A stretch of DNA of 64,000 nucleotides from Mobula hypostoma (lineage: Eukaryota): the NCBI RefSeq assembly GCF_963921235.1, contig NC_086107.1, positions 101,186,001-101,250,000 of the forward strand, read 5' to 3'. Each line of letters begins with the position of its first letter. Positions within the stretch are counted from its first letter, which is position 1. Of this stretch, positions 4,400-61,262 are shown piece after piece. A program made the position numbers and the translations under genes. The notes below the pieces were generated by a model. It searched no databases. It saw only the letters and a list, made by a program, of their open reading frames with translations, and was not told where the DNA came from.

Positions 4400-5015
4400 G
4401 CGCTGCCTGACTTGCTGAGAGTTTTTTCACCTAGAACCTGCCAGCCTTCTCCTTCCCATCCTCCCCCCACCATCTTTATAGGGCCTCTGCCCCCTCCCTC
4501 TTGTACTCAGTACCAGAGCCCATGAAGGCAAGTATGCCAAGTGCTATTTTTTCCACCACCCTGATGGCCACATACTCCTCTTACCTCTCCTCACCTGCCT
4601 ATCAGCTCCCCCTGGTGCCCGTCCTCCTTCCCTTTCTCCCATGGTCCAATCTCTTCTCTTATCAGCTTCCTTCTTGTCCAGCCCTTTGGCTTTTCCACCC
4701 ACGTGGCTTAACCTATCACCTTCTAACTGTAACAAACGGAAGGGTCTCGGCCTGAAACGTCGACTGTACCTCTTCCTAGAGATGCTGCCTGGCCTGCTGC
4801 GTTCACCAGCAACTTTGATGTGTGTTGTTACCTTCTAACTGTCCTTCTTCCTCTCCTTCCACCACCTTGTTCTGGGATTTTCCCCCTTCCTTTCCAGTCG
4901 TGATGAAGGGTGTTGGCCCGAAACGTCAACTGTTCATTCCTCTCCATAGATGCTGCCTGACCTGCCAGTTCCTCCAGCGTTTGGTGTGTAGTTGCTTCAG
5001 ATTTCCAGTGTCTCT
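4400..5015 (+). mobile_element. Penelope-like element terminal region with two hammerhead-like motifs
   Basis: Pyrimidine-rich terminal sequence that is the reverse complement of the element end at 18.1-18.5 kb; hammerhead-like motifs at 4740-4766 and 4895-4932. Confidence 0.65.
4895..4932 (+). ncRNA. Minimal type-I hammerhead ribozyme motif (C3-to-G mutant)
   Basis: CAGTC-GTGATGA-AGGGTGTTGGCCC-GAAACGTC-AACTG: stem I, core, stem II, GAAA and the GUC cleavage triplet. Confidence 0.6.
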
Positions 5016-5662
5016 GGTGGTGACAATTTACAGTGGCCAGTTAACCCCTACCAATCAAGAAGTAGCCGGAAGAACGTGCAAACTCCACACTTGACAGCAC
5101 CATAGGTCAGGATAGAACCTGTGTGATTAGTGAGGCAGTAGGTCTGCTAGTTACTAGTTAGTGTCACTGTTGGACAAACGGACTGGAAACCAGTGATACG
5201 TGGCCAATGGCGGGTGAAATGAGTTGTGATAAGGACAGGGACCTGGAAGAATTTGAAAATGGAGATGAAGATAATAAAATGAATGTGTTTCTGTAATGGG
5301 AGAAGGTCAGCAAGTGCAGAGCTTATGGGTGAATGTGATGACTCCATGCCTTCATTTAGCTTTGTGACAAATGGCTCTCAGTCTCAATCTCAAAAAGACC
5401 CAGGTCATTAATTGCCTGAGGGTCTGGAAGTAATTTGGAGAATGTGTAGCTTGGGTGGTTGATGGTTGGGTTGAGCTGTTCTCCGATCTTGGCCATTTAC
5501 TTGCAAACATTTCATGAGGAGACATCATCAGTGCGCTGTTAGTTGTCTTCTTGTGTGGTGACGAAACTTCTTGCGAGTGAGTTGCCAAGATCAGAGGGCC
5601 ACGCAACCCAGCATGAAGGGCCTGCTCCTGTCGTGGTTAACAGCCTGTGTTTCATGTGACAG

Positions 5663-5780
5663 CCATCGAAGCAGTGAAAAAGGCACACCGCGAAGAGCTG
5701 GAGAGGGAGATGGAGAAAATGCGCTGCACGCAAAGCATTGCGGCCAACAGCGATCTGGAGAGACTGCATAAGCAGCACCA
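5663..5780 (+). CDS. TRIOBP: TRIOBP-like coding exon: (A)IEAVKKAHREELEREMEKMRCTQSIAANSDLERLHKQH(Q)
   Basis: Acceptor tgacag and donor gtgagt; 118 nt, phase 1 to 2; joins the previous exon in frame. Missed by the ORF track. Confidence 0.9.
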
Positions 5781-7916
5781 GTGAGTACGGGTTAATGGTG
5801 TGGCTGGGGAACCCAATACACAGCCAGTGCAGTGCATTCCGATGGAGGCTGCTGGCTGCATTCCACTTGTATAAACTGTTTTATTCCTGTTCTTTGGGAA
5901 AACCAGTATATCTATTGGCACCAGGGCACAAACTAACCGAAAATAAACTCAGACAAATGCTGGAAATACTCAACAGGTCTGTGGAGAAACAGTTAAATCT
6001 TGCTCTGATGAAGAGTCATTGACTGGACACGTTGATCGCTTATTCCTCCACAGACGCTGCTTGAACAAGCCACGTGTTTCCAGCATCTTCCAACGTCTGC
6101 AGTCTTTGTTTTGATTTTCAACATGGACTCACTGAGTTGGACTTGGAACAACATTTATTTACTCAGCAAACTGAGCCTTGCATACACAGCACACCAGAGC
6201 AATCACTCCATAGTTTTAATCAAAGTGAAACTCTCCGAGGAGTCACAGAGTCGTACAGCAGAGAAACAGGCCCTTCAGCCCATCATGTTTATTCTGCTCT
6301 TTGTAACTACATATGCTGATCCCTTCTGGACCTTAGCAATTCAGGTACTTGTGGAGATGCTTCTTGTATGTTATGAGGGTCTGAACTTTCCCCAGCTCTA
6401 CAGGGAGCATGTTCTCATCTGTTAGCAAAAAACAACCCCCTCCACTCAAATCCCCTCTAAACCTCCCATCTCTCTCCTTGTCTGAGAACACCCACCAAGG
6501 AAAAAAAGCGCTTATTATCTGTCCCCTCATAAAGACCTCTATCAGGTCACCCTTCTTCCTCTGCTCCAGGCCCACCCAGTCCCTCCTCATGTCTGTAACA
6601 CTCCTTCCCAGCCATCATGCCAGTGAAACACAAGAGACCTCAGACGCTGGAACCTGCAGCAACTATCGGTCTGCTGGAGGAACTCGGCAGGTCAAGCGGC
6701 ATCCGTGGAGAGAAAAGGAATTGTCGACGTTTTGGATCCCGATTCGGGTTTTCAACTTGAAAAGCCGACAATTCCTTTCCTTCCGCAGACGCTGCTCAGC
6801 CCACCGAGATTCCTTGTTGCTGCTAGCCTAGTGAGTCTCTCCACCTCTCCGGTGCAATCATATCCTTCCTATAGTGTGGTGACCAGAACGGAACACAATA
6901 CTCCAAGCGTAGCCTAGACAACACTTTATAAAGCTGCAACACTGTGCCCCAATTCCTATATTCTCTGCTGTGGCCAGTGAAGAGAAGGGACCTTTATGTC
7001 TTCTTCACCTGTCTGGGGTTGCTGGGATAGCATGGCTCGAAGGGCCAGAAGGGCCCACTCTGCACTGTATTGCTAAATAAATAAATTATTTCAAGAATTT
7101 ATGAACACATCCCTCAAACTCTTCCTGTTCATACTCCCTAGTGTCCTACTACCTACTGATTACATCCCACCCTTGTTGCCTTTCTGAAAGACATCAGTTC
7201 ACTCTTGTCCATTTGCCATTATCCCACTTAAGTTTTCCAACTGATCTGTGTCCCTCTCCAGGCTGAAACGGCCTTCCTCGCTATCCACAGCACACAGCCA
7301 GTTTTGCATCGGCTGCAACTTGCTTATCGTATTTGTACATACATGCACAAACATAAGAGGGCAGAGGTCTGGAGAACACAACAAAGTTCTCCTGCTGAAA
7401 GCAGGGTGATACTTGCAGCAGAGTAGGGATTTCTACATAACACAAGTTAAGGGTGTAAAATCCATTCCAGTGGCAGCACGAAGATTACTGCACAGGACGG
7501 GAGAGCAAGCTTCAGATTTTGACTGTGGGTTGTATTTACACCATGGAAGGTCAGGATTTAAATTCCCAAAATTGTAAACAAAACTTTGGTATAGAAAGCT
7601 TCCCTTGATAATGGCAAACATTAAGCAGTAGGGTTGTTTTAAAGCTGACCGCTAGAGAAGCAAACCTAGCATTTGGAACATAATTGACTCCCAGCCCAGA
7701 ACGGTACACTTGATGCTTACCTCCCTGCTGATGTTGCCCAACAAACCACTCGGTCTGGGAGGCAACTAGGGATGGGTCATAAATGCGTGCGGTGCCCGTG
7801 ACTGGATAGGCTGTGTCTCCAGCTGTGATTGACAGGCGTTTCGCCCAGTCACGCGGAGGGATGGTGTGTTGGGTCTGCCGATGCAACTGCATATTCCGTA
7901 TCTGTCTGTGTCACAG

Positions 7917-8076
7917 GAAGGAGCTGCAGGTGCTGCAGCGGGAGCTGCAGGTGCTGTCGGAGCAGTACTCCCGCAAGTGCCGGGAGATCGACTGCCAGGT
8001 GAAGGAGACCCAGCTGCGGGAGAAGGACCTGTCGCGGAGCCAGCAGGAGAACAAGGAGCTGCTGCGGCAGAACCAG
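7917..8076 (+). CDS. TRIOBP: TRIOBP-like coding exon: KELQVLQRELQVLSEQYSRKCREIDCQVKETQLREKDLSRSQQENKELLRQNQ
   Basis: Acceptor tcacag and donor gtgatg; 160 nt, phase 2 to 0. Carries the family motif RELQVLSEQYSxKC; GC3 is very high. Confidence 0.92.
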
Positions 8077-8754
8077 GTGATGAGAAAGTGCTCTCTGTTT
8101 CCCGGCGGCAGCCCACCGTGTGGGAGAAGGCAGGGGTTGAAGCATTAATAGTACCCGGCAACACTCTGCTGATAGAGTGAGATCATTGAGATAATCTCCT
8201 AGGGTGTATAGTGTCAAAGAAGCAGGCCTTTCGGCCCACTGTGTCTGTGCTGACCATGGGGTGCCCACCTACTCCGATGCCGTTTTCTGTGCACACACTT
8301 TGCCATCACCTCTCACCCCACTGATCGCCCACCGCCTACACTAGGGGCAGTTGACAGCGGGCAGTTCATCCACTGACCCCGCACGTCTTTGGGATGTAGG
8401 AGGAAACTGGAGCACCCAGAGGAAACTATAGAGTCACATGGAGAACCTGCAAACTCCACACAGACAACACCTGAGATCAGGATTGATCTATGAGACACCA
8501 GCACTCATGGCTGCTGCACTGTGCCTGTGCTCCAGATCAACTGGGTGGCCTACAGGCCTAGGTAGGGTGAATCAGTCTCTTTTCCCCAGGGAACCAAAAA
8601 CTAGAGTGAACAGATTCAATGTGACGAGAAAACTTTAAAAGAGCAACTTACTAATGCATAGGGCAGTGTGTAAATGAGACAAGCTGTCAGAGAAAATAGC
8701 TGCAGGTACCGTAATAACATTCATTTGTATATATACTGTACATGGATAGGAAAG

Positions 8755-9565
8755 GTTCAGCATCAGAATCTGGTTTAATATCACTGGCGTTTGTTGTTAT
8801 GTGGCAGCAATACTTTGCAAAAAAACTGTAAATTTCAGTAAGAAGTGAGAAAAATTAAGTAGTGAGGTAGTGTTCATGGGTTCAGTGTCCATTCAGAAAT
8901 CGGATGACGGAGGGAAAAGCTGTTCGTGAATCGCTGAGTGTGTGTCTTCGGGCCTCTGTACCTCCTTCCTGATAGTAGCAATGAGAAGAGGGCATGTCCT
9001 GGGTGATGGGGGTCCTGAATAATAAATGCTGCCTTTTTGAGGTATGGCGCCTTGAGGATGCCCTGGATGCTGGCGAGGATAGTGCCCATGATGGAACTAA
9101 CCAAGTCTACAACTTTCTGCAGCTTATTTCAGCCCTGTGCAGTGGCCCCACCCCTGTACAGACAGTGATCCAGTACCCCACCGTACAGATGGTGATCCAG
9201 TGTCCCCCTCCCTGTACAGACAGGGATCCAGTGTCCCCCTCCCTGTACAGACAGGGATCCAGTGCCCCACCCCCCGTACAGACGGTGATCCAACCAGTTA
9301 GAAATCTCTCCAGGGCACGTAGGTAGAAATTTGCGAGTGTCTTTACTACAACTGCTGTCGTGCCTTCTGTGTGGCTGCATCGATATGCTGGGCCCAGGAA
9401 GAGACATTGACGTCCAGGAATTGAAATTGCTCACTTTTTCCACTTCTGATGCCGTGATGAAAGCTGGCATGTGTGCCCTCCTCTTGCCCTATCTGAAGTC
9501 CACGATCAGCTCTTTAGTCTTACTGATGTCGAGTGCAAAGGTTGTTCCCTGCAACACCACTCAAC
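8755..9565 (-). mobile_element. Rex1/Babar-type LINE 3' fragment with an internal minisatellite (9141-9292)
   Basis: Minus-strand translation KKAAFIIQDPHHPGHALFSLLLSGRRYR; five ~26-31-bp copies of ccctgtacagacagtgatccagtg. Confidence 0.65.
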
Positions 9566-11736: not shown

Positions 11737-12780
11737 CATCTGTGGGTGTGAACTTCCCACTATTCAGGACACTTACAGCGACAGGTGTGTAAAAAGGGCC
11801 CGAGGAATCATTGGGGACCCGAGTCACCCCAACCACAAACTGTTCCAGCTGCTACCATCTGGGAAACGGTACTGCAGCATAAAAGCCAGGACCAACAGGC
11901 TCCAGGACAGCTCCTTCCACCAAGCCATCAGACTGATTAATTCATGCTAATAAAATTGTATTTCTATGCTATGTTGACTGCCCTGTAAGACCATAAGATA
12001 TAGGAGCAGAAGTAGGCCATTCAGCCCATCAAGTCTGCTCCGCTATTCAATCATGGGCTGATCCAATTCTTCCAGTCATCCCCACTCCCCTGCCTTCTCC
12101 CCATACCCTTTGATGCCCTGGCTAATCAAGAACCTATCTATCTCTGCCTTAAATATACCCAATGACTTGGCCTCTATAGCCGCTTGTGGCAACAAATTCC
12201 ACAGATTTACCACCCTCTGACTAAAGTAATTTCTCCGCATCTCAGTTCTAAAAGGAGATCCTTCAATCCAGAAGTCATGCCCTCTTGTCCTAGAATTCCC
12301 TACCATGGGAAATAACTTTGCCATATCTAATCTGTTCAGGCCTTTTAACATTCGGAATGTTTCTGTGAGATCCCCCCTCGTTCTCTTGAACTCCAGTGAA
12401 TACAGCCCAAAGGCTGCCAGACGTTCCTCATATGGTAACCCTTTCATTCCTGGAATCATTCTCGTGAATCTTCTCTGAACCCTCTCCAATGTCAGTATAT
12501 CTTTTCTAAAATAAGGAGTCTAAAACTGCACACAATACTCCAACTGTAGTCTCACAAGTGCCTTATAGAGCCTCAACATCACATCCCTGCTCTAATATTC
12601 CATACCTCTAGAAATGAATACCAACATTGCATTCGTCCTGTTGCATTTATTTCTGTACATATTACTTATTACAAATTACAGTAACTTGCACTTTGCACAT
12701 TCAGATAAAGGCATAATGTAAAGATTTTTACTCACGTATGTGAAGGATGTAAGAAATAAAGTCAATTCAATTCTATTCAA
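11737..12780 (+). mobile_element. Rex1-type 3' end split by the CR1 insertion at 11987-12635
   Basis: ORF 11708-11950 (RCVKRARGIIGDPSHPNHKLFQLLPSGKRYCSIKARTNRL); the 3' UTR resumes at ~12637 and ends aataaagtcaattcaattc. Confidence 0.6.
11987..12635 (-). mobile_element. CR1 LINE 3' fragment
   Basis: ORF 12076-12489 ERVQRRFTRMIPGMKGLPYEERL...RGDL.ETF...RTRGH...FSQRVVNLWN.LP, plus the CR1 3' hairpin and tail. Confidence 0.85.
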
Positions 12781-18019: not shown

Positions 18020-18038
18020 GACACACACATACACACAC

Positions 18039-18084
<46 letters not shown>

Positions 18085-18094
18085 ACACACACAC

Positions 18095-18125
<31 letters not shown>

Positions 18126-18127
18126 CA
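18020..18127. repeat. (CA)n microsatellite
   Basis: Directly visible. Confidence 0.95.
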
Positions 18128-19035
18128 ATGCTGGAGGAACTTGGGTCAGACAGCATCCACAGAAATGAACAAACACTCAATGTTTCAGGCCGAGACCCTT
18201 CTTCAGGACTGGAAAGGAAGGGGGAAGATGTCATATTAGAAAAGTGGAGGGGGGAGGGAAGGAGGACGGCTAGAAGGTGATAGGTGAAGCCAGGTGGATT
18301 GGAACAGTAAATGTCTGGAGGGGAAGGAATCTGAAATGAGAGGAGAGTGGACCATGGAAGAAAGGGAAGGAGGGGCAACGGGGAGGTAAGAAGAGGTAAC
18401 TGGCCAGAGTGAGGAAAAGAAGAATAGGGAAGGGGGAGGGAATTTTTTTTACCGGAAGAAGAAATCAATATTCATACCATCAGGTTGAAGGCTACCCAGA
18501 TGGAATATAAGATGTTGTTCATCCACCCTGAGGGTTGGCCTCATTTTGGGACATTTTGTGACATGTCAGAATGGGAATGGAAATCGGAATTAAAATATTT
18601 GGCCACCAGGAAGTTCCACCTTTGGCGGATGGAGCCGAGGTGCTTGACGAAGCGTTCCCCAGTTAACGACGGGCCTCGCCAATGTAGAGAAGGCCGCATC
18701 GGGAGCACCCAACACAATAGACGGCCCCAGCAGGTTCACAGGTGAAGTGTTGCCTCACTTCACCTGGAAGGACTGCTTGTGGCCCTAATTGGTGGTGAGG
18801 GAGGAGGTGAATGGGCAGGTGTAACACTTTGCCCTCCTGTAGGGAGGGAGATTAGTGGGGAGGGATGAATGGACAATGGAATCACGGACGGAGTAATCCC
18901 TGGGGAAAGCGGAGAGTTGGGAAAGGTAAAGATATGTTTGGTGGTGGGGTCCCATTGAAGATGGTGGAGGTTGTGGAGGATGATGTGTTGGATGCAGAGG
19001 CTCATGGGGGGGTAGGTAAGGACAAGAGCAACTCT
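18125..19035 (-). mobile_element. Penelope-like retroelement 3' portion (GIY-YIG endonuclease remnant plus hammerhead-bearing end)
   Basis: Minus strand at ~18755-18662 reads RQHFTCEPAGAVYCVGCSRCGLLYIGEARR*. A hammerhead-like motif CAGTC-CTGAAGA-AGGGTCTCGGCCT-GAAACATT-GAGTG lies downstream on the same strand (18174-18211). Confidence 0.8.
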
Positions 19036-21386
19036 GGCGCTGTTAAGGCGACGGGAATATGGGATCAGCGAGATTTGATAGAGGTATACAAATACGAGGG
19101 GTACAGAAAGGGTTAATGCAGGCTTTTTCACTGAGGTTGGGTGAGAGAGCTAGAGGTCATGGGTTAAGAGGGAAAGGTGAAAGGTGAAATGTTTAAGGAT
19201 GCTCTTCACTCAGAGTGGTGTTGATCTGGAGTGAGATGTCAAAGCAAGTGGTGGATGTGGGATTTCAACATTTAAGAGAAATTTGAATAGATACTGTGCA
19301 TGAATGGGCGGGATGTGAAGGGCTGATCAAAGGAACTAAACAAGAGTAACAGTTCAACAGGGACTAGATGGGCCAAAGGACCTGTTTCTGTGCTGTAGTG
19401 CTCCATGAGTCTATACCAGGTGTTACATCTGACCAGCGCATACCCTCCCCGTCCCCGGGGCTCTTTTGGGGCTGTGTCCAGTCTTGGGTTGGGTCTCACT
19501 GGCCTCTCTGCAGAGCGAGCCGCGCTCTCGGTGGGCGGTGTTGGCCCGCTCCAGGGTCACTGCGCCAGCAGAGGTGTGAAATGCAGAAATCGGTGTATTC
19601 CCAAGCTGTAGCTCAGCCTCACAACTGGGAGATCTCTCGAGTGTTAAAGTCAAGTCAAGTCACTTTTTATTGTCATTTCGACCATAACTGCTGGTACAGT
19701 ACACAGTAAAAATGAGACAACGTTTTTCAGGACCATGGTGCCACATGAACAATACAAAAACTATACTGAACTACGTAAAACAACACAAAACTACACTAGA
19801 CTACAGACCTGAAGATCCTCCCACAGGGCTGCAGCCTCGTTCACTCCGTTATATCATCACAAAGCTACACCTGGCCCGTGATGAGCTTCCAGCCAATAAC
19901 TTACTCCCTGTTTATTATGCCACACTTAACCCATTCAGCTCCTTCCATCTTGTACCTGATGCTGGGGAATCCATTCTGTACATGAACCAACCAGCGACCT
20001 GCGGCAGGATCTCAGCAGGTCTCAAGCAGCATTTGAGCTGGAGAAAGTATTTATTTATTTATTGAGCTATAGCGTGGAATAGCCCTCCTGGCCCTTCAAG
20101 CCACGCCGCCCAGCAATCCCGATTTAACCCTCACCTAATCACGGGACAGTTTACAATGAGCAATTAACCTACCAACCGCTGCGTCTTTGGACTGTGGGAG
20201 GAAACCGGAGCACCTGGAGGAAACTCACAGGGAGAATGTACAACTTCCTCACAGGCAGCGATGGGAATTGAACCTGGGTCGCTGGTACAGGAAAGTATTG
20301 TGCTAACCACTACACCACAGTGTTTCTCCACGGATACTGCTCGACCTGCAGAGTTCTTCCACCAGCCTGTGTGTTGCCCCGGCTTCCTGCATCTGCAGTC
20401 TCTTGTGTCTGTACAGTATATAAACCATTTGAGCGCCCCGTGGAGGGGAGGCTTGGAAATGATGCTTTTTTGGCCTTAAGCTGCGAATTTCTGCTGGAAT
20501 TACTCCAGTGGAAGAGGTTAACCTTCACAATGAACAGTTCAAGGTTAATGCTAGGCTCCTCTCATATCGAAGCACAATCCAGCATAGGACAGGGACAGCC
20601 TGTGCACAGGGGGGAGCAGGGGAGGTGAGCGAGTGGGAATGGGGAGAGAATAAAACGGGACTGGGGTATACGATTAGCATGGGCTTGATGGACCGAAGGG
20701 CCCGTTTCCGTGATGCAAGAGCAGATGAAATTCTGTGGCTTCAGAAAGTAACATTTAACGGCACCAGAGACCCGGATTCAATTCCCGCTGTGGTGAGTGT
20801 GTACGTTCTCCACATGACCGCGCGGATTTCCTGGCGCTCCAGTGTCCTCCAACATCCCAAGGGTGTACGGGTTAGGGTTAGTAAGTTGTGGGCATGTAAC
20901 GTTGGTGCCAGAAGCATGGTGACACTTGCGGGCTGCCCCCAGCACGTCCTCACTCGGACTGTGTCAGTCTGTAGTGAAGGACCTTGGCCTGAAACGTCGA
21001 CTCTTTACTCTTTTCCACGGATGCTGCCTGGCCTGCTGAGCTCCTCCAGCATTCTGTGTGCATTCGCGCATTTCACGTATGCTTTTCAAAGTTTTGATGC
21101 ACGTGTGGCAAATAAAGTTATTTTTTTCCTTTACTCAGTAGTAACAACCTCTAGCCAAACCATTCACAGAGTAAAGATGAGTCAAAATTTAACATGAGTT
21201 ACTTCCAGCATCTCTAACTTGCTCCATGGTCAATGTTATTCTACAAAAGCTAATCCCTCGAATGGATTGAAGCAACTCGCTCCTGGGTATTTATTGTTCT
21301 GCCTTATTGCCAGCATGTTTCTGGGCTCCTTGTTCTTGGGATTGGACACTGGGGGTGAGCTTACAGCACTCTCTCTCTGTCCTCAG

Positions 21387-21768: not shown

Positions 21769-22945
21769 CGGTGAGTGCGTGCACCCCGGGGTCTGGTGAG
21801 AGCTGTGTGTACTGACCCTGGTGTTCGGCTTCATATCACCTCACCCTTATCTTCCTCACTTCCCCTACCTGCCAGGAACCGGCTCTGGGGCCTTCCTCCA
21901 GTTCTGAACTCTTCCATTCACCTGTGTCGATGGAGGCTGCAGAGGCCCTTAACACTGGCATTGCCCCCTCAAGGTGGTCCACAGTCACAGAGAGAGACAC
22001 AAACAGGTCTTTTGGCCCTTTGAGTTTGTGCCAACCAGCAAGCACTGGTTATTTCTCACTTATCCTCTCGGACAGAGCCCGAGGTGCCATCTGTTCTCCT
22101 ACCTGCGCAGTGCTTGGACAACTTAAACGTTGGCCCAGATGCACTGGGAGCCTAAGTGTCGGGTGCAGAGTCGAGGGTCGGGCTGATTCCACCCGCCCTC
22201 CTGCCAGTGTTTGTTCCTTTCTCCGCAGCGCCGGGACCGTGAACCGATCCGGCTGCTGTGCGTTTCTGCCCCACTGGTGTGGTGAACTGGGGACTGAGGC
22301 TTGGGCCTACTCCGGCAGCTCCGGGAGCAGATCTGGGATCAGTCTGGTTCGGGATGCTGTGGGCTTGCTTCTGTTGTTTGCATAATGCGTGCTTCCTTTC
22401 CCCCCCTTTTTTTAATTGGGTTATTCGAGTTTCTTGCTTTGCGGCTGCCTGTAAGCAGGCAAATCTCAGGGTGTATAATTTATCCATTCATTGATAATAA
22501 ATGCCCTTTGAATCTTTGAATCTCTGTGGCTGGAATGTTCGGCTGAAAATGAAGCAGATAATTTCATGATCAGCTGTTATTCCTACACTCCAGTGCATTG
22601 TGTGGCTGCTATGGACAACCGGTCTGTATGACAATAATCCCACAGGGGCAAAGCGGGCAAAACCAGCATTTATCAACATCGCTAATTGCCATTGGGATGG
22701 TGATGGTGAATTGCATTCATAAACCACTGCAGTCCCGCTGGAAAAGGTAGTCCCAGAGCACCACTGGGGAGGGAATTCCTGGGTTTTTACCCAGTAAAGA
22801 AATTGTGTTATATTTTAACTCAATTCTATTTTAATTGTCATTCAATCATATATGAATGCAGCCAAATGAGACAGCGTTATGATGGAGTCAAGGTGCAAAA
22901 TCACATTACCAACAGTCACACTGTCACAGTATAAAATAGTCCCGA

Positions 22946-23314
22946 CACCTCCCCCTACCGTCCCCCAGCACTGCACCTCCCCCACCCCCGGCACTGCACC
23001 TCCCCCACCCTCCCGGCACTGCACCTCCCCCTACCGTCCCCCCCCACTGCACCTCCCCCACCTTCCCAGCACTGCACCTCCCCCTACCGCCCCCCAGCAC
23101 TGCACCTCCCCCACCCCCCCCCCGGCACTGCACCTCCCCCACCCTCCCGGCACTGCACCTCCCCCTACCGCCCCCCAGCACTGCACCTCCCCCACCCCAC
23201 CCCCGGCACTGCACCTCCCCCACCCTCCTGGCACTGCACCTCCCCCACCCTCTCGGCACTGCACCTCCCCCTACCGCTCCCCGGCACTGCACCTCCCCCA
23301 CCCCCCGGCACTGC
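22946..23314. repeat. C-rich minisatellite, ~23-bp unit (cccggcactgcacctcccccacc)
   Basis: About 15 tandem imperfect copies. Confidence 0.95.
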
Positions 23315-24843
23315 AGCTTGAGGCCCAGTCCTCGCATATAGAATATTAGTAAAAACAAAACCAGACAAACATATATGTACATAGTCCAGACCCCTCAGCC
23401 CATTTGAAATCTTCAGTTGACCACAACTGCGCTACACATCCCCCTGTGGAGCGTGTCGGTTCAGATGCCGCTCCCCGGTGGCTGATGATGGTGGTCTCCG
23501 CCTGCTGCCCCTGTGGTAGTAAGGATCGTGCCTTTGGTAGGAAAGGCCAGTGCTTTGGCAAGTCTCTGTGGGCTTGGGGAGAGGATACGCAGGGTCGTGA
23601 TTGAATGTTGGTTTTGCTCACCCCTCTGCTCCGCTCTCGCCCCTCCCCTCGCAGGCTCCCCCTTGGCCTTGCCACAGAGGAAGAGACCCAGCGATGAAGC
23701 CTTCAGTCCCGGCCGAAGGCTCGGAATTACCTGTGGATGCGGAGGTGCCTGGAAGACTCGCTCCGTGCCTTTCTTCTGGTCCTACTGTTTAATAACGGCT
23801 CCCAATGTCGAAATTGCTGTGAAATTAAAACTGAGAATATATATATATATATATATATTATGTATACACACCGGTTAGCAGTTATCACCTGTTCCATTCA
23901 ACCCCTCATCCATCCTAACCCCTCGCACGGTTGCCGTGGTATCCTGCAACCACTAGGCATTGGCCTGCTTTTCCGATGCGTCCGAGTCGGCGGCTGTGAA
24001 GACCACAGTGGCTCTGGGCTGGGATTCCCCACTCCAGCGTCTTGGCTTTGTACTGGAAGGTACACAGCCCATCCTTTGGCGCCATAGCCAGTTCCAGCGT
24101 CCAGGGTGGCCAGCTCGAGCTGGGGCTGTCTCCAGAGCTTGTCTTCCCTCGTTCCGCCCAGCCCGCCACCCCACCCGCGGAGCAGCCGGTGGGAATGGGC
24201 ATGGACACACTGACCCATCACCACGCTCTGTTTGCAGAGGGAATCAGGAGTGTTCTACCTGTGTGGTGGGAATTCACCCTCCCTGCCGTACAGATTTCTC
24301 GAACTTGTCAGTTCAAAAGGCTTTGTTCCTCATCACCCCCCCGCCAGCTTTTTATGACTGTCAGCATTGAACTTCAACGCCCTGAAATCTTCCTCCCAGC
24401 TGATCCTCAGGGCAGCTTCCAGGGAGTGAACCAGCCTTCTCCTGGAAATCCCGGGATGGACAGGCGGTTGGTGACCCGAAATGGGAATCAGCTCTGTTTA
24501 AGCAGGATGTTCAGGGGGTTCATTCAGGACCCTTCTCTCCCCTCCTCCGCTATCCAAGCCAAGTGACGAGTGGCTGAGGAAGAAAGGAGGTGTATTATTA
24601 TGTGAGGTGCTGTGGCAGAGTCCAGTTCAGTCTGTACCCTGCCGTGCTAAAGCTTTGGACAGATGCACGTGATTTTTTCATGTTCGTACATGTGCTGCAG
24701 CCCGGAAACTTCCTCTACCCTGCAGGTTTAGCAGACAAAGGCATTCACACCATCAAGCCCATTCTACCATTCAGTTTGATCCTTAGGATGAGCGGGGAGG
24801 AGAAACCACTTTCTCCCATCTCACTTTTCAAAATCCTTGATAC

Positions 24844-25828
24844 GCATATCCAATGGGACTGGATGGATAGGGTATAAGGACACCCAGGGGTGGGGCATAT
24901 CCAATGGGACATGGATGGGCAGGGTATGAGGGCACCCAGGGGTGGGGCATATCCAATGGGACATGGACGGGTCGGGTATAAGGACACCCTGGGGTGGGGC
25001 ATATCCAATGGGACATGGACGGGTCGGGTATAAGGACACCCTGGGGTGGGGCATATGCAATGGGTCATGGATGGGTCGGGTATAAGGACACCCAAGGATG
25101 GGGCATATCCAATGGGACTGGATGGGTAGGGTATGAGGGCACCCAGGGGTGGGGCATATCCAATGGGACTGGATGGGTAGGGTATGAGGGCACCCTGGGG
25201 TGGGGCATATCCAATGGGACATGGATGGGTAGGGTATGAGGGCACCCAGGGGTGGGGCATATCCAATGGGACATGGACGGGTAGGGTATAAGGACAGCCT
25301 GGGGTGGGACATATCCAATTGGACATGGATGGGCAGGGCATAAGGACACCCTGGGGTGGGGCATATCCAATGGGACATGGATGGGTAGGGTATGAGGGCA
25401 CTCAGGGGTGGGGCATATCCAATGGGACTGGATGGGTAGGGTATGAGGGCACCCTGGGGTGGGGCATATCCAATGGGACATGGATGGGTAGGGTATGAGG
25501 GCACCCTGGGGTGGGGCATATCCAATGGGACATGGACGGGTAGGGTATAAGGACAGCCTGGGGTGGGACATATCCAATGGGACATGGATGGGCAGGGCAT
25601 AAGGGCACCCTGGGGTGGGGCATATCCAATGGGACTGGATGGGTAGGGTATGAGGGCACCCAGGGGTGGGGCATATCCAATGGGACATGGACGGGTAGGG
25701 TATAAGGACACCCAGGGGTGGGGCATATCCAATGGGACTGGATGGGTAGGGTATGAGGGCACCCTGGGGTGGGGCATATCCAATGGGACATGGATGGGTA
25801 GGGTATGAGGGCACCCAGGGGTGGGGCA
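24844..25828. repeat. G-rich minisatellite, 51-52-bp unit, ~19 copies (ggggtggggcatatccaatgggacatggatgggtagggtatgagggcaccc[t/a])
   Basis: atccaat recurs every 51-52 nt from ~24848 to ~25778; there are no unique spacers. Confidence 0.97.
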
Positions 25829-39850: not shown

Positions 39851-40707
39851 TGTAAGGGTGTGCAAGACAGGCTTTTCACTGTATCTCGGTACATGTGACA
39901 ATAATAAAGCAATTCCAACAGCAACACCAATACCCAGTAACTTAACCCCCCACCACCCTCAGTGGCAACAAATTCCACAACCTCACCGCCCCTCGGCCGA
40001 AGAAATTCATCCTCATCTCATTTTTAATGAGTTGTTCCTTTATTCTGAGGCTGTGCCCTCGGATCCTGGACGCTCTCGCTAATGGAAACATCCTCTCCAC
40101 GCCTATGCTATCCGGGCCTTTAAGTATCCCGTAAGTTTCAATGAGATTCTCCTCCTGTTGGACTAGGAAATGATGATGCTGGGGAATCGGCAGGAACAAA
40201 GGTTGGGAAAGAAGAATTATGTCAACACTTTCTATGACAGCTGTTTTGAATGGCAGGCTGGAGTCACATCCCTCTAATTCACTGTCAGTGGTGTCCTGGG
40301 ACTGTGGAAACAGAAGGACACTGTCCCTGATCCCGTTACCCCCTCTGGAAACCAAAACAAAGACTACAGACGCTGAAAATCTGAAATAAAAATTGAAAAT
40401 GCTGGAAACACTCAGCGAGTCAGGCAACGTCTGTGGGGAGAGAAAAACAGTTACCATTTCAGGTCAGAAGCCCTTTGTCAGAACAAGGTCAATGTTGCTA
40501 CCACTCCTGTATGGGCATAGTACGGATGAAGTGGTCTGACCCTGGCACTGGCCCTGCGTTGGAGTGTGGCTGCCCTTTCCTTTGGGAATTCTGGCAAGGA
40601 GCAGGAAGTGATTCAGTGTGGCGGAATGTTCTGCTTGCTGGCTGGGATTTTCAGTTCACCGCGTCACTGAGCACTTTCTCCAGTGGAGCTGTGGGCAGAG
40701 CTTGACA

Positions 40708-40723
40708 GTGTGTGTGTGTGTGT

Positions 40724-40755
<32 letters not shown>

Positions 40756-40990
40756 CTGTGTGTGTGTGTGTGTGTGTGTGTCTGTGTGTGTGTGTGTGTG
40801 TGTGTCTGTGTGTGTGTATGCACACACGTGTATATGCATGAGTTTGTGTACATGTGTGCACACGCATGTGTGTGTGTATGTATGCATTTGCACGCACGTG
40901 TATATGCATGAGTTTGTGTACGTGTGTGCGCACAGGGATGTATTTGTACATGTGCGTGTGGGGGTGTGTTTGTGTAAATGTGTGTGTTGT
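40708..40990. repeat. (TG)n microsatellite grading into an alternating purine-pyrimidine tract
   Basis: Directly visible. Confidence 0.95.
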
Positions 40991-42614: not shown

Positions 42615-43290
42615 CCTTCCTGAGACCGCATTTCGGTGAGTCAGATCATTTGGCTGTACTCCCACTACCTCCACACAGAGCCTAAAGAGCAAGGCTCCAG
42701 AGATCAAAACAACTAAATGCAGACTGCAGGAGGCTGGAGAGTGGCTACGGGACTGTCCTGAGCCATTGGACTGGGCCATTGTTCAAGAACTCATCCGAGG
42801 GATTCCACGACAAATTTACAAATTTCACGACACATGCCAGTGGTAGTAACCTTGATTCTGAGGACCTGCATGATCACACCAGGGCCGTAACAGACTTTAT
42901 TAATACAGCTGTGTATAAGTGTGTCCCCACAAAATCATTCAGGGTTTACCCCAATCAGAAGCCCTGGGTGAGTCATGAAATCCGGAATCTGCTGAGGACC
43001 AGATCAGAGGCATTCACGTCTGGAGTTCAAGAATGCTACAAGAGGTGTAGGTATGATCTCCGGAAAGCCATTCCTCGAGCCAGGTGGAGATTCCGGACTA
43101 GACTGGAATCAACGAGGGATGCTCGACAGTGGTGGCAGTGTTTGAATGCCATAACCTTCCACAAAGCTAAATCTTGTGACACAGGGGACAGCAGAGTTTC
43201 GCTTCCAGGCGAACTCAATGCCTTCTATGCTCACTTTGACCACCAGAACGGTGGGGGGGGGGGGCGGGGGGTGGAACCATCCCGTATCCC
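42615..43290 (+). mobile_element. Rex1/Babar-type LINE internal ORF2 fragment (endonuclease-RT linker)
   Basis: SDHLAVL, CVPTKSFRVYPNQKPW, RYDLRKAI, SLPGELNAFYAHFD. Confidence 0.75.
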
Positions 43291-44102
43291 CATCGTGTAT
43301 TTCTGGTGCTTCCACAACTGACGGTCTCACTTTAAGGACTCTTTATCTTGTTATTTCATGCTCATTATTTATTGCTGTTTATTTATATTTGCATTTGCAC
43401 AGTGTGTTGTTCATTGATCCTGTTTACAGTTACTGTTCTATAGATTTGCTAAGTCTGCACACGGGAAAAGAATCTCAGGGTTGAATGTGATGACATGAAT
43501 GTACTCTGATAATAAATTTTACTTTAAACATTGAACTTTGGAAACAGCCCAGTCCATCCCAGTCAAGCCCTCCCCATCATTAAGCACCACTACAAGGAAG
43601 CAGCATCCACCATCAAAAACTCCCACCATCCAGGCCATGCTCACTCATCACCCCTACCCTTCAGGCAACAGGTACAGGAGCCTTTTGGTCCCACCACGTC
43701 CAATAACAGTTACTACCCTCCAAGCATCAGGTACTTGGACCAGTGAGGATCATTTCACTCACCTCAACATTGAACTGGTTGCACAACCTATGGATTCATT
43801 TTCAAGAACTCTACAACTCACGTTCTCAGCATTAATTAGATGTTATTTGCACAAATTGTCTTCTTTTGCATATTGGTTGTTTGTCAGTCTTTGTTTATGA
43901 ACAGTTTTTCATGAATTCTATTGTATTTCTTTTTTTTTCTCTGTAAATGCCAGCAAGAAAATGAATCTCAAGTTGGTATATGATAACACATACGTGCTTT
44001 GACAAAAATTTACTTTGACTTTTGCCCTACAAGCACTGTGCACAAAAGAGAAACGTGCAGAATGCAGGACAAGAAAATCAAAGTCAAGTTCAGTATCAGA
44101 AG

Positions 44103-47917: not shown

Positions 47918-48005
47918 GCTTAAGGGTTTTAAAAATAAAAATAAAGATTAAAGATCTTTCAAAGAATGGCTTTATTTGTCACATATACATCAAAATGTTG
48001 GCATA

Positions 48006-50790: not shown

Positions 50791-51739
50791 TTCCCAGTGG
50801 TGCTTGGACTTAATTCTTCTCTCTCTCTGTTATTGTTTCTTTCTGCACGACTTCAGATTGCACAATTTTTGCACCATTCTGTTATTTTGTTCTTGTCACT
50901 GTACTTAATGGTGTATTCATTAATATCATTCACACTCTTTACTTCATGAGTTTCATACAAGCAAGGGAATTGCTTTGCATCCTGGTTTATATGACAATGA
51001 ACTACTTGGGAATTTGAACAACAATGATCAAGATGAGAAATCAGTTTGCGTGAACGGAGAGTTGCAGGCGAACCACAGAGGGAGACCTGAACACTGGTCA
51101 CATGAGAAGCTTCAACTTTAGTCCGGGTCAGACCAATGGGCAAAAAACACCCACATGTGAAATTGCTTCCAACACTATCAGTGGGCAGATGGATGAACAA
51201 GACAGAAGGCATGGAGGTCAGGACTGGGTTAACAAATCTTCCCGGTACACTATCTTCCAGCGTCGGTGAAGTTACCCAAAGGGATTGCGAAGCACAATTT
51301 AACTCCCTGCCCCACGCGTTTAAGGCAAAGATAGTGATAAAACTTGGTTCTACAAGTTGTTCTAAGGAAGGAAGAATGGTGTGAAGCTAGAGAGGTTTAG
51401 GAGTAGTGTTCAGGAGCTTAAAACCATGGGAGCCGATGGTACGAGATCATAGGTAGAGATGCACAGAAATAATCAGGTAACACAATAACCATGGACAGGT
51501 TTAATCTTCACGCTGATGGGACACCCAAGTTATGTTGCAGTTTTGGTTAGAGTATTGGGTTCAGTTCTGATTCCCTTATTATAGGAAGGATGTGGAAGCT
51601 TCAGAGAGGGTTCAGCAAAGATTTAGCAGGATGCTACCTCAAGATCCAAATGAAGCTGGTGCTATTTCATTACATTTTTTTTTAAGAATAAAGCATATCT
51701 TGAAATGTAAAGTAATAGCTCTAGCGTGTCCAATCCCAG

Positions 51740-52175
51740 ACAAGAGAAATATGCAGATGCTGGAAATCCAAGCAACACACACAAAATACTGGAGGAACTC
51801 AGCAGGCCAGGCAACATCTATGGAAAAAAGTACAGCGGGCGTTTCGGGCCGAGACCCTTCGGCAGGACCGAAGAAAAAAAAAACAGGAATAGATTAAAAG
51901 GCGGGGGGGCATGATCTCTGAAGAGGGAGGGATGAAGTAAAGTGCTTGAAAGTTGATAGGTGAAAGGGACAGAAGGCCATGGAAGAAAGGAAATGGGCGA
52001 GCAACACCAGAGGATGGGCGGGCAAGGAGATAAGGCAAGAGAGGGAAAAGGGGATGGGAAAAGATGACGGAGAAGTGGGGGCATTACTGGAAGTTTGAGA
52101 AATCGATGTTCATGCCATCAGGTTGGAAGCTACCCAAACGGAATATAAGGTGTTGTCCCTCCAACCTGAGTGCAC
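51740..52175 (-). mobile_element. Penelope-like element 3' fragment with a degenerate hammerhead (51833-51870)
   Basis: Collinear with 18125-18530; minus strand cggtc-ctgccga-agggtctcggccc-gaaacgcc-cgctg. Confidence 0.7.
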
Positions 52176-53199
52176 CTAGGCCCCAGTATGTGGTGGGCTA
52201 CTCTTCACTCCTCCATCCCAATGGGGTCGCCCCCCCCCCCCGCCAGTGGCTTTGTTTCTGCCCGCCGCCACCCTCACAACCTGTGACCCTCGCCCTACGA
52301 CCTCCCCCGGTCTCTTCCCCTCATCTTCGCCACCGTCGTGGAATAAGGTTGTTGCCTACACAAAATATGCCCGGTCGCCCCTCATGAGCTCGGGGTAAGG
52401 CCTGCTCCGGCCCGCCCGGAACCTGCTTCCCTCCCGGTGAGGAGATGTCCCGCTGGCACAGTCCGGGAGGACATGCTGAAGGTCGGTGCATCTAAAGCTG
52501 AGACTCCTTGGGGAAGAACCACGGTCAAGACTCCTGTCACTCCTGGACACCGAAGGACTGAACTCCCGTGTGACAGTCAGACACTTCGGGACAGGGGCGC
52601 GTTGTTACTGTACACGCGTCCGGGAGCGAGTGCCCTGGATCTGACTTGGAGACGGGAATCCGTGGCGGCCGCCATCTCTGCAGCCGGGCGCAACTTCAGG
52701 GCGAGCAACTTACTGAAAGGCAGCGCCCCAGATGTTGGGACAGAACACTGGTGCTTTATCCGGGGAGCTGAATAGGGCTTTCAGCCGCGGAGATATAGAA
52801 GGCTGCTCCACAAACTGGGAATAAAGCCTCATTAAGAAAGTGGTGTGGGCGACAGTGCATCGCTCAGCCCACTCAGAACCAGGGCTTGGGCATTGTGTCA
52901 GGATTCCCTGTAACAGCTGCAGGGAAGTTTCGGCAGCCTGGTTCCCGGAGGGTGTCAGGAGCCTCGCAGATGCATACCTGAAAACAGTCGCAGATTTCGC
53001 TAGATTCTCCCAGCCAGCCTCCAGCAAAACCTTCACCCTGACGACCCAATGCCCTTTAATCTCTCCTGCCCACTGCCCACTGCCCACTGCCCACTCACGG
53101 ACCTTTGCCAGGCCGCCCCCCACCACCTTCCGTAATTTAGAACTTGTTTTCTTCTCACTAAGTCTAATGAAAGGTCACCGTTCTGAGATGTGGATACAA

Positions 53200-53234
<35 letters not shown>

Positions 53235-54284
53235 AAATTCGGCAAATCAAGCAACGTCTGTGGGGGAAATAGACAGATAAAGTCTTGGTCTGATGAAGAG
53301 TCTCGGCCTGAACTATCAACTGTTGATCCCCCTCCATAGATGCTGCCCAGTGTTTCCATTTAAAAACTCATTTTCTCACAGAAACGTACTGCACAGAAAC
53401 AGGCCATTCGGCCTATCTTGTCCATGCTGGGCGAGATGCCTGTCCACTCTAATCCCATTTATCTGCATTAGGTCTGTATCCCTTTATACCCGGGGCTCCC
53501 AATCTCTTTTATGTCATGGGCCCCTACCACTAACCGAGGGGTCTGGACTCCGGGTTGGGACCCTCTGTTCTGTACCTTTCCCATCTAAGTACTTATCCAA
53601 ATGCTTTTAGACATTGTAATGGTGTCTGCCTCTACACCTCTTCTGGCAGCTCATTCTAGATAAGTACTAGCCTCTGTATGAAATACTTTTAAGTTCCTTT
53701 AAGATCAACTTTGAATCTCTCCCTTCTCACCTCCTCTGGCTCTAGTCTCCTCTGCCTTGGGCGGGGGGAAAGACTCTGAGGGCCTTCTCTGTCCCTCGTG
53801 ACTTTACAAGTCTCTATAAGGTCACCCCTCAGCCCCCTACACTGCAGTGAGAATAAACCCAGCCTGTGCAATCTGTTCGTTCACCTACAACCCTCCATTC
53901 CAGGTAACACCCAGTCCTCCCTGTGCTGGCAACCAGACCTGTGCACAATACTGTTCCGCGTGATGTGCAGCTACAACACGACTTCATAGGAAGAACACGC
54001 AAACTCTGAACGGACAACAGCCAAAGTCAAAGTTCAAAGTGAACTTATCATCAAAGTGCATATCTGTCACCATATACAACCCTGAGATTCATTTTCTTGC
54101 AGGCATACTCAATAAATCCATAGAATAGCAGCCATAACAAAATCAATGAAAGATTGGACGAACTTGGGCATTCAACCAGTCTGCAAAAGGCTACAAACTG
54201 TGCAAGTATTTTTAAAAAGCAATAAATATTGAAATCCAGAGATGAAAAGTCATTGAAAGTGAGTCGATAGGTTGTGGGAACATT

Positions 54285-54800: not shown

Positions 54801-54894
54801 GCAAGTGCTCAGGACCCATTGGCAAGAAGGATATTAACATCTTATCCTATGTTTTTTGATTTTTTTCAATGATGGGGAAAATGAAGTTGATTGA

Positions 54895-55420
54895 AGTTAT
54901 ACCCTCTGTTTCAAGAGCCTGATGGTTGGGGGGTAATAACTGTTCCTGAACATGGTGGGGTGGGTCCTGAGGCTCCCGTACCTTCTTCCTGATGATAGAT
55001 GCTGCCCTGCTGCGACAGCGTTTCATGTAGATACGGTCAATAGTGGGGAGAGCTTTACCTGTGATGGACTGGGCTGTATCCACTACTTTTTGTAGGATTT
55101 TCCATTCAAGGGCACTGGTGTTTCCATACCAGGCTGTGATGCAGCCAGTCAATATACTCTCCACAACACACTTAAAGAAGTTTGTCAAAGTTTTAGATGT
55201 CATGCCAAATCTTTTCAAAGTCCTAAGGAACTAGAGGCACTGCTGTGCTTTCTTCATAATTGTACTTACGTGCTTGGCCCAGGACAAAGGGTCTGAAATG
55301 ATAATATAGAGGAGTTTAAAGCTGTGGGCCCTCTCCACATCTGATCCCTAATGACGACTGGCTCATGGACCTCTGGTTCCCTTCCCTTGAAGTTAGTAAT
55401 CAGCTCTCCGGTCTTGCTGA
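54895..55420 (-). mobile_element. Rex1/Babar-type LINE 3' fragment
   Basis: RFGMTSKTLTNFFKCVVESILTGCITAWYGN...LQKVVDTAQSITG. Related copies lie at 16450-17200, 38640-39150, 43540-44020, 48950-49645 and 62760-63160. Confidence 0.75.
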
Positions 55421-58430: not shown

Positions 58431-58929
58431 TGGGGCTAAACATTGGCTGACCTTCTCCATTGATACCTCCTGACCTGCTGAGTTCCTTCAGCATTTTGCT
58501 TCTGTTGCTCTGGATTTCCAGCATCTGCTAAATTGCTTGCGTTTTGGATCTAATCCATCAGACGTGGAATTGCTTTCCTACCCACTCAATGTGACGGTTG
58601 CTGTTTTCACCCTGTGTTGCATCTTCACCAAGTTGACACCTTGCACTGGCAACATCAGAGGTCAGGGAAAGGGAGTAGAAGTGGGGCCATTTGACCCAGC
58701 TGGGATCTTCAACAATATCATGGAGAATCTGGATCTTCACCTGAAAACCCCTGCCCAAAATCTGAAACACTCAGCAGGTCAGGCAGCATCTGTGAAGAGA
58801 GAAGGACAGTCGACGTTTCAGTCTGTAACCCCTCGTCACAAGAGTATCATCGTTTCTGTCTCACTGTTTTTGATCCCCACAGAAACGTAAGTGCGTTGGT
58901 CTTAAATCCTCTCAACAAGACTTTTTTTT

Positions 58930-59590
58930 TAGATTATGAGAACACTCGGTCCTCTTTTATTGTCATTTAGAAATGCATACATGCATTAAGAAATGATACA
59001 ATGTTTCTCCGGAGTGATATCACAGAAAACAGGACAAACCAAAGACTAACACCGACAGAACCACATAATTATAACATATAGTTACAGCAGTGCAAAGCAA
59101 TACCATAATTTGATGAAGAACAAACCACAGGCACGGTAAATAAGGACTCAAAAGTCCCCGAGTTGATCGACTCCCGAGTCCCCGATAGCAGGTGGCAAAA
59201 GGGAGAAACTCCCTGCCATAAACCTCCAGGCACCGTCAACTTGCCGATACCTTGCAAGCAGCCGACCACAGCCGACACTGAGTCCATCCGTCCGAAAACT
59301 CTGAACTTTCGAGCAGCCCCTCCAATACAACCTCCCGAGCGCCATCCTCTGCCGAGCGCCTTCGACCTCTTCCCGGCCGCTGAAACATGCAAAGCTGAGG
59401 ATTTCGGGCCTTCAGCTGTGGAGATTCCGATTACCACACAGTAGCAGTGGCAGCGAAGCGGGCATTTCAGAAGTTTCCAGATGTTCCTCCGCACTCTCAC
59501 GTCTGTCTCCATCAAATCAGAATTGTGCACGGTCCCCTACTTGACAAATAACAGACATCACCACCGAAGTGGCCGCGCGCACTGCCACCT
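58930..59590 (-). mobile_element. Young, unclassified non-coding retroposon-like element (~650 bp)
   Basis: CpG-retaining 5' half starting aggtggcagtgcgcgcggcc on the minus strand; AT-rich 3' half with aataaaa near the end; no credible ORF. Confidence 0.5.
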
Positions 59591-61224
59591 TCTCCACGGC
59601 TCTCTGGGTCAGGACATCCCACACATTCACAGTCCTGTCTGACAAGAAATTCCTGCCCATCTGCGCTTCGTCCTGACACTTACCTCCTAACTCCAGATTG
59701 CTCCAAGATGGCCTCCCCCCACCATGATCATAGAGTTGTATAGCACAGAAACAGGGCATTCTGCTGATCTTTTTCCCTATCTACTCAATTCCCTTTGGAC
59801 TGTATCCATCTTTGCCCTTGCCTATTTCAGTGTAGAGAAAATTTATCTTAAACCTAGAGATGGTGTCTGGTTCTACCATCTCCTCTGGCCACGCATTTCA
59901 GATGTCAACTACCCTCAGTATAATAACTTCTCCCTCAGATCCCCTTTAAAGCTCCTTTCTCTCACCTTTAACCTCTGCCTTCTTGTTTTTGATATCCCTA
60001 CCACGTGGAAAAGATTCTGACTCTCTATCCCATCTGATTCTCTCATTACCTTGCACATTTGGGAAAGTTCCTCTCTCATTTTTCTACCTCTGGAGCTTGG
60101 ACCTCCAGCACGGTCAGCAGGGCTACTGACAAACTCTCTCGGGTCCTCCTGAAATAATTTCGAGAGAATCGCGGAATTATAGAATGTTTACATTGCAGAA
60201 GGAGGCCGTTTCGCCCGTCATATCTGAGCTTGTTGAATAACTTCCAAGTCTGATTCCACCGTCCACCACTCAGTCTGTAGTCCTGCCCTTCAAGTACACA
60301 ACCAACTCAAGTTCAAGGGTGAGGAGGTCTTTCCCACCCTCCCAGGCAGTAAGTCCCAAAACAGTCAGACCTCCTGCATGAAGAAACGTTTCACCATTTC
60401 CCGTCTAATCCCTCCTGCGCTCTGCTTTCTGACCACTCAGCTCAGGGAACAAGATCTCCCTAATTACCCTGTCCAAGACCCCCATAATTTGGTCTCAGTT
60501 GGACGCAAGCCCTTCCCTTCTTCAGCGAATGCCACTGACCTCTTACAATAGGACAGATCAGTGGCCAGACCATGTGACATAGCAGAATTAGGCCATTCAG
60601 CCCATCAAGTCTGTTCTGCCATTCTGCATCTGCTGAAAGTCTTGTGTTTAAGACTTCCCTATCCCTACCACTGACAGATAAGCTCACCACAAAATTGTTA
60701 CAACTTTTTGCAGCCTACATTTAAAATTAGCTCTGAAAAAAGTCAACAGATTCCAATGATTGCAAACCATACGATTTTACAACCACCTGTAAAAAAATCA
60801 TTTGCAGGATCGAATCTACATTTTACGTTTTGGTGAAGCTTCCCAATAATTTATAATCATTAATGGAAGAAAGTTATCATTTACCAGGGATAAGCAATTG
60901 GTGCTGACGGAAGTTTTAAGTTTGACTTTTCTAACCATGGTTGAGAAATTAAGACTGTGACCTGTTCAAAGAATTTTTGATGGTCAGGAGTTATTTATTG
61001 GCTTCCTTACATAGGGAATGGCATTCCATTACGCAGGTTATCTGATGGACATCCGTGAAGTGAAAAATCAGCTGTAATTTTTTTTCAAAATGCTGCGCTG
61101 GTGTGAAAGATAGAATCCCATGCCCTGATCTCTCCTCGTAACCATTGGGAAAGCTTGTGTTTAATAGGCTGAGAAGGTGTGACTAAGAAGTAACTTCAGA
61201 GCGATCCTCATCTTTTTTTCCCTC

Positions 61225-61262
61225 CAGTCCTGATGAAGGGTCTCGGCCCAAAATGTCGACTG
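61225..61262 (+). ncRNA. Minimal hammerhead ribozyme motif in a Penelope-type terminus (two CpG-decay mutations)
   Basis: CAGTC-CTGATGA-AGGGTCTCGGCCC-AAAATGTC-GACTG: perfect stem I (CAGTC/GACTG) and CUGAUGA; GAAAC has become AAAAT. Confidence 0.65.

Follow-up and report, generated by a model that had tools for sequence, protein, structure and literature searches.

Metazoan Penelope-like elements (PLEs) carry minimal type-I hammerhead ribozymes (min-HHRs), an arrangement published by Cervera and De la Peña in 2014 (PMC4209133). The consensus in the supplement to that paper runs from a U-rich flank through CUGANGAH, a stem II closed by G-C, GAAAN, a palindrome and NUH to an AU-rich flank, and its accessible text gives min-HHR activity as low for dimers and absent for monomers. 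Here we analyze a 64,000-nt stretch of the ray Mobula hypostoma (contig NC_086107.1, positions 101,186,001 to 101,250,000 of the forward strand; hereafter the window, with positions counted from its first letter), which harbors a dispersed repeat family built around a ~38-nt motif of this kind. Our favored explanation, to which we assign a probability of roughly 0.9, is that this motif is the min-HHR of the pseudo-long terminal repeat (pLTR) of a PLE with a Neptune-type cysteine linker, and that the copies in the window are 5′-truncated, mutated and likely dead insertions.

Point by point, the ray motif agrees with the consensus in PMC4209133. As far as the accessible parts of that paper show, the two have in common a type-I topology, CUGANGA with an unpaired nucleotide, a G10.1-C11.1 pair, a palindromic GAAA-C-G-U-C core, a 5-bp stem I, a U-rich 5′ flank and an AU-rich 3′ flank; in both, most copies stand alone and derive from truncated PLEs, and some form pairs on opposite strands. 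The same CG/UC core stands in the Ixodes, Culex, Takifugu, Petromyzon and Xenopus rows of the published alignment. Unlike the min-HHR described there, the ray motif has a short stem II (4 bp with a 4-nt loop), and its abundance looks far above the 4,000–9,000 motifs given for coelacanth and Xenopus. A chondrichthyan row is absent from the chordate rows of Fig. S3 that were examined, as are shark, Callorhinchus and Leucoraja from the searchable supplements. No earlier report of the ray family was found in the literature covered, the supplements of a 2026 preprint and one supplement file of PMC4209133 lying outside the search. The family is a further instance of a known arrangement and changes no concept.

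An earlier note on this DNA had listed ten sites of the ~38-nt motif. All ten are present on the strands given there, and their coordinates hold overall, save that the copies at ~6004, ~53288 and ~58808 had been given starts 3–4 nt within the motif, and that 4740–4766 comprises no more than the 3′ half of the motif, lacking the 5′ strand of stem I and CUGANGA. The motif copies run on into a conserved block of ~60 nt, giving a whole repeat of ~110 nt. When the ten copies, each with the 60 nt that follow it, were made into a profile and searched against the 64-kb window, 25 matches resulted. Of these, 23 reach E ≤ 0.001: the ten seeds and another 13 copies, most of them partial. The reversed window, used as control, gave no match. 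With an extended profile, 22 matches cover 2,372 nt, or 3.7% of the window. A 31-letter pattern allowing up to three mismatches occurs twice in the window against an expectation of 0.00, and none of 100 shuffles reached two. A scan of the window with a strict min-HHR pattern gave no exact match, so the window contains no intact copy.

The hammerhead lies at the 3′ end of a PLE, as the earlier note had claimed: two copies (18174 and 51833) each follow the decayed end of an open reading frame (ORF) for reverse transcriptase and endonuclease (RT-EN), at distances of 240 and 213 nt from its stop codon. The order in the element is the end of the EN ORF, a pyrimidine-rich untranslated region (UTR) of ~210–240 nt, the hammerhead, the ~60-nt conserved block and an optional tail of ~35 nt. 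As exemplified by the 5′-truncated PLE at 18114–19059 (−), the ORF end (19059–18449) falls into five colinear but frameshifted stretches, in which a thumb/linker that keeps a C-x-x-C remnant near 18830 is followed by pieces of GIY-YIG; the 240-nt, pyrimidine-rich 3′ UTR, the min-HHR (18211–18174) and a downstream block closing in (TG)n follow. In the second 5′-truncated PLE, at 51739–52197 (−), the ~30 final codons of the EN ORF (stop 52086–52084) precede a 213-nt 3′ UTR, the min-HHR (51870–51833, with lesions at A6 and U16.1), the downstream block and the tail. The UTR of the 4895 copy is 83% identical over 104 nt to that of the 18174 copy.

Searches with a 52-amino-acid (aa) piece of this ORF returned no relatives from a word index and 14 from HMMER. 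Seven of the eight relatives looked up were labeled Hypanus, Mobula or whale shark, and proteins of these fishes are the nearest relatives. The best relative (P0001) led to 54 proteins of 734–1126 aa, most of them bearing annotations for RVT_1 and HTH_animal, and some for GIY-YIG; an atlas search agrees. An 860-column profile of the 54 proteins matches five colinear pieces at 19056–18461 (−) over columns 649–857 (best independent E-value 2e-9), and 44 of the 54 full-length proteins match this region by tblastn. The proteins P0015 and P0020 scored E-values of 4e-6 and 8e-7 for RVT_1, just under the curated cut-off, and of 5e-4 and 2e-5 for GIY-YIG, above the cut-off. In endonuclease-containing PLEs, one ORF that encodes RT and, at its C-terminus, GIY-YIG precedes the pLTR; of such an ORF, ~210 C-terminal codons are matched in the window, and the RT core lies outside it. 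The pattern C-x2-5-C-x-x-C occurs in 52 of the 54 relatives (a simple count, not anchored by position). A cysteine-rich RT-EN linker is a mark of Neptune-like PLEs in the available parts of PMC8557442 and PMC3846280; judged by its linker, the element would be Neptune-like.

Similar features are described for PAc, a PLE of Anolis (Frangieh et al. 2024, PMC11167929). As in the ray element, its hammerhead lies in the pLTR and overlaps the start of an ORF, a putative one in the ray, and two 3′ ends downstream define an optional tail of 30–40 nt. PAc belongs to the Poseidon clade, whereas the ray family has the cysteine-rich RT-EN linker ascribed to Neptune-like elements. In PAc, cleavage was measured and found to be protein-assisted and dispensable for insertion in vitro (PMC11167929, in the sections available).

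The state of the family beyond the window was taken from contigs of 4 of 23 listed public sequencing runs (X1, X5, X9 and X11; X1 possibly from the same sample as the window, X9 perhaps an RNA run), aligned to 61160–61400 at a likeness of at least 82%, with some differences uncounted by the alignment tool. In line with the claim that this genome carries very many ribozyme relics, its copies are very numerous: for X1, 131,807 contigs aligned, for X5 87,944, for X9 9,680 and for X11 101,026. Summed depth, which is not a copy number, climbs from ~4–11 in the unique flank into the millions within the repeat. The consensus drawn from the window in the earlier note, with its CTGATGA core, recurs as the majority state in the contigs of the four runs, CUGANGA and GAAA included. 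This state has the full core, an extra nucleotide after A9, G10.1-C11.1, a palindromic ACGU replacing stem III, and a GUC site. Despite a bias to the mutated reference letters, G12 prevails at 66, 72, 79 and 63% in X1, X5, X9 and X11, and C15.2 at 66, 72, 85 and 67%. N7 is U or C (C share 39, 49, 64 and 29% in the same order), a second letter that fits N7 being a free position of the core. The remaining CpG positions show transitions at 5–14%, and A6>C (2–6%) is the only non-CpG core change among those listed. C11.1>U reaches 27% in X1, 33% in X5, 49% in X9 and 10.5% in X11, and C11.1 prevails in the three runs other than X9, where it accounts for about half. Its high share in X1, X5 and X9 and low share in X11 suggest a lineage-expanded subfamily, so that the change probably marks a subfamily and is not a product of decay. 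Reading it as a new register shift was discarded, since U at 11.1 already stands in the cichlid, Xenopus 1 and Latimeria rows of the published alignment (PMC4209133, as far as accessible).

In the window, by contrast with this majority state, each of the ten copies carries a core or stem lesion, as the earlier note had stated. Nine have a change in at least one of 11 invariant core positions; in the copy at 18174 the core is intact, but the ACGU palindrome is broken by G16.2>A and one pair of stem I is gone. With such lesions in all ten, the window copies are likely catalytically inactive. Lesions had also been said to fall often at CpG, and 25 of 80 CpG cells differ vs. 48 of 300 non-CpG cells (Fisher p=0.004). 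However, this excess is weaker than it appears, because six of the 25 differing CpG cells are C11.1>U, probably a subfamily state; without that column, a hand count gives 18 of 70. C11.1-G12, C15.2-G16.2 and C17-G1.1 are all CpG, which makes the core prone to CpG loss. The bulge A is kept in nine of the ten copies and G10.1 in every one. The description of stem III as reduced to a palindrome holds for six of the ten copies, which have CG at 15.2–16.2, and for the majority in contigs.

Several results weigh against assigning the family to PLE hammerheads. ORF sequence adjoins only two of the ten copies, the others being assigned through shared repeat sequence, and Pfam scans gave no match for any of six short ORF pieces or for P0001. 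The 16 matches of an Rfam scan of the window up to E 5 include no hammerhead family, as is expected for copies without stem III. Stem covariation across 11 window copies, which as decayed paralogs, two of them poorly aligned, are ill suited to such a test, scored 0.238, a value equaled or exceeded in 103 of 500 shuffles. Only two of seven copies folded better than shuffled sequence (z about −2). Folded as a monomer, the majority state forms stems I and II together with a non-native helix in the core, and when two copies were co-folded without constraints the catalytic dimer did not appear. The co-fold failure fits a weak 4-bp helix (−1.7 kcal/mol), yet it provides no evidence for a dimer. Dimer cleavage was reportedly observed by Lunse et al., as cited in a review. 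As to the window alignment, 78% of the cells of stems I and II are paired. The natural pair 4740/4895 was rejected as a working dimer, its ACGU:ACGU helix having a probability of 0.0 and both CUGA boxes being damaged.

How the ray copies were inserted can be compared with endonuclease-containing (EN+) PLEs (Craig et al. 2021, PMC8557442; Arkhipova et al. 2013, PMC3846280). According to the available parts of these papers, the two have in common 5′ truncation, an adjoining inverted 5′-truncated copy, a one-end tail, short target duplications and microsatellite neighbors; unlike those of EN+ PLEs, the inverted structures in the ray are tiny (~110–230 nt), scarcely more than a hammerhead and its downstream block. 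The inverted partners, the one-sided tails and a 13-bp target duplication in the window are ordinary published features of PLE insertion. This duplication is the one convincing case from nine sites searched: a 13-bp direct repeat (4718–4730 and 4830–4842), likely a target-site duplication, flanks a young 99-nt insertion (4731–4829, +; the 3′ half of the hammerhead plus the downstream block) within the 3′ UTR of the 4895 copy, so that the head-to-tail pair 4740/4895 is a nested insertion. The first 7 nt of this insertion may be a very short inverted arm. A 17-nt match near 32646/32852 was not accepted as a target duplication, as it lies ~40 nt past the right end.

Part of the window belongs to a host gene: six exons of a TRIOBP/MPRIP-like gene (797–21765, +) are 95–100% identical to an M. 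hypostoma protein, among them a 40-aa exon (5662–5781) that is 100% identical to M. hypostoma TRIOBP and matches proteins of Hemitrygon and M. birostris at 98%. By these identities the window is that of a myliobatiform-like ray. The first hammerhead copies of the window sit in TRIOBP introns. Five head-to-head pairs were identified (5954/6004, 6627/6747, 27768/27911, 32646/32760 and 53236/53288). At 5954–6124, in a TRIOBP intron, a weak inverted arm (5954–5993, −, E 0.084) abuts a diverged hammerhead (~6000–6038, +) with a tail. Two pairs extend the earlier list: that at 6627–6809 consists of a tailed minus-strand copy (6627–6735) and a strongly decayed plus-strand hammerhead (6747–6809), while at 32646–32852 a tailed copy reaching from the 3′ strand of stem II (32646–32761, −) abuts a tailless one beginning at stem I (32760–32852, +). 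The pair at 27768–27993 combines a min-HHR with A6 and U16.1 lesions (27875–27838, −) and a partial copy (27911–27993, +), and in the pair at 53236–53347 a minus-strand copy (53236–53283) abuts a plus-strand hammerhead (~53285–53322). The optional ~35-nt tail, found after the TG-rich end in several copies, is present on one arm only in three of the five pairs, and loose ends of contigs beyond 61324–61325 read into it.

Among the copies outside the head-to-head pairs, that at 4895–4932 (+; C3>G and G1.1>A) ends the pyrimidine-rich PLE 3′ UTR and has a partial tail to ~5016. The min-HHR copy at 20965–21003 (+; element ~20962–21072) has a damaged CUGA box; the diverged copy at 40362–40487 (−), also beyond the earlier list, is tailed; and the diverged min-HHR at 58808–58845 (−) shows C3>G. 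Partial tailed copies start from stem II at 33116–33236 (+) and from about the GAAA box at 58436–58544 (+). The best-kept copy, at 61225–61262 (+; tailless element ~61209–61329), departs from the majority state by two transitions at CpG, G12>A and C15.2>T. A further, very decayed hammerhead-like remnant stands at ~53162–53200 (+), directly before a (CA)n tract, and a weak match to the PLE profile lies upstream of it (52819–52932, +, independent E-value 0.14). At 61226–61324 (+) and 51869–51741 (−), a frame running from the hammerhead across the downstream block and tail is open for 33–43 codons and may be the N-terminus of the PLE ORF. A polypyrimidine tract with CAG, resembling a splice acceptor, overlaps the 5′ strand of stem I at 61205–61227, 4870–4897 and 18209–18236 (−), comparable to the Drosophila virilis Penelope intron that ends at helix I.

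Under the favored explanation, copies of this kind would arise through an internal start of reverse transcription just downstream of the hammerhead, as published PLE work suggests (PMC11167929, in the sections available). Even the shortest cDNAs would then carry the motif, and such a start would account for the tail and for the motif region being the commonest remnant. Where two pLTR hammerheads stand in tandem in an active master element, base pairing between their ACGU palindromes would create two active sites, which would cut after GUC, probably helped by the PLE protein. After insertion, each solo copy would decay neutrally.

The breakpoints allow a further, tentative reading, which we regard as possible but rather doubtful: the hammerhead may shape insertion by its fold and not by cleavage, with cDNA synthesis ending or changing strand where stem I begins on its outer, 5′ side, which would make this edge, and not GUC, the starting point of tiny and fold-back copies. 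Among the 15 joints shown of 223 in the joint table (11 strand-switch joints and four back-joints), an end at 61223–61227 is shared by 10 of the 11 strand-switch joints, and all four back-joints land at 61226–61230, the 5′ edge of stem I, not at the GUC site at 61257. In four of the five window pairs, the forward copy begins at or just within the 5′ edge of the motif, against its inverted arm. The homology of the reference copy itself starts near 61223–61227, which biases the joint table and weakens this reading.

Some of the same joints bear on an alternative to truncated autonomous copies that we hold to be unlikely, namely that a PLE-derived non-autonomous element, resembling a short interspersed element or a non-LTR (long terminal repeat) retrozyme, amplifies as its own unit of ~95 nt. 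Such a unit would suit the depth, which starts sharply near 61223 and ends near 61325, as well as the four listed joints that return by 91–95 nt (61318–61320 to 61226–61230) and would represent head-to-tail units; these ~93-nt back-joints in contigs hint at some tandem units elsewhere in the genome. It would also suit the preprint of Li et al. 2026 (10.64898/2026.07.22.740005), which in its available text derives animal retrozymes from PLE pLTRs and reports them from one chondrichthyan; like the ray motif, non-LTR retrozymes there are type-I hammerhead repeats related to PLE pLTRs. However, the depth edge coincides with the start of the reference copy's own homology, the 5′ ends in the window vary (profile positions 2 to 170 in 22 matches), and two copies extend into the ORF. 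Retrozymes are described in that preprint as tandem arrays with complete hammerheads, whereas the window copies are dispersed and lesioned: no tandem array of complete-hammerhead units was found in the window, where the sole head-to-tail pair (4740/4895) is the nested insertion with its 13-bp duplication.

It is far less probable that the likeness to a hammerhead is a coincidence and that the repeat sequence was kept for another reason, e.g. as an ORF start or splice acceptor. The missing Rfam match and covariation would agree with this, as would one frame through the motif that is open for 33–43 codons in two of five copies examined, and the acceptor-like (Y)n-CAG over stem I. Yet every invariant core position is found in combination with the additional nucleotide after A9, G10.1-C11.1, the palindrome and a stem I of 5 bp, at the very site where PLEs are known to carry them, and the sole high-share non-CpG variant of the motif sits on the free N7; PLE hammerheads are also known to overlap with an ORF start (PAc) or with the end of an intron (D. 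virilis). Similarly improbable is that some copies act as functional or selected ribozymes on the host TRIOBP pre-mRNA. Five copies (4740, 4895, 6004, 6747 and 20965) do sit within TRIOBP introns in sense orientation, and the non-CpG core differs less than the downstream block (11 of 90 vs. 96 of 438, p=0.04), but this contrast is confounded by the choice of recognizable cores and by subfamily differences downstream. All ten copies are lesioned, the only close sense pair has a dead CUGA box in both partners, and solo min-HHRs showed no cleavage in vitro in the available account of PMC4209133.

Outside the repeat family, the window contains a long tandem repeat array at ~24750–25990 with open frames on the minus strand, a GC-rich short-unit tandem repeat at ~22870–23390 that translates into proline-rich open frames, and ATG-rich and (TG)n-type simple repeats at 39730–39850 and 40660–40930 that gave spurious snoRNA and miRNA matches in Rfam below gathering scores. 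Open frames at 12076–12519 (−), 33860–34282 (−), 34659–35084 (−), 35965–37769 (−), 42686–43321 (+) and 54847–55230 (−) resemble fragments of non-LTR retrotransposon ORFs, which may be of CR1/L2, Rex and R type.

The ray family extends the known min-HHRs of PLEs to a batoid family of very high copy number and provides a natural, homogeneous consensus for the model of dimer or protein-assisted cleavage. With very many insertions at hand, the positions of 5′ breakpoints relative to the ribozyme bear on any importance of cleavage or of RNA structure for the life cycle of PLEs; if the reading in which insertion stops at the edge of stem I were true, the huge copy number in rays would amount to a genome-scale readout of the role of the PLE hammerhead.

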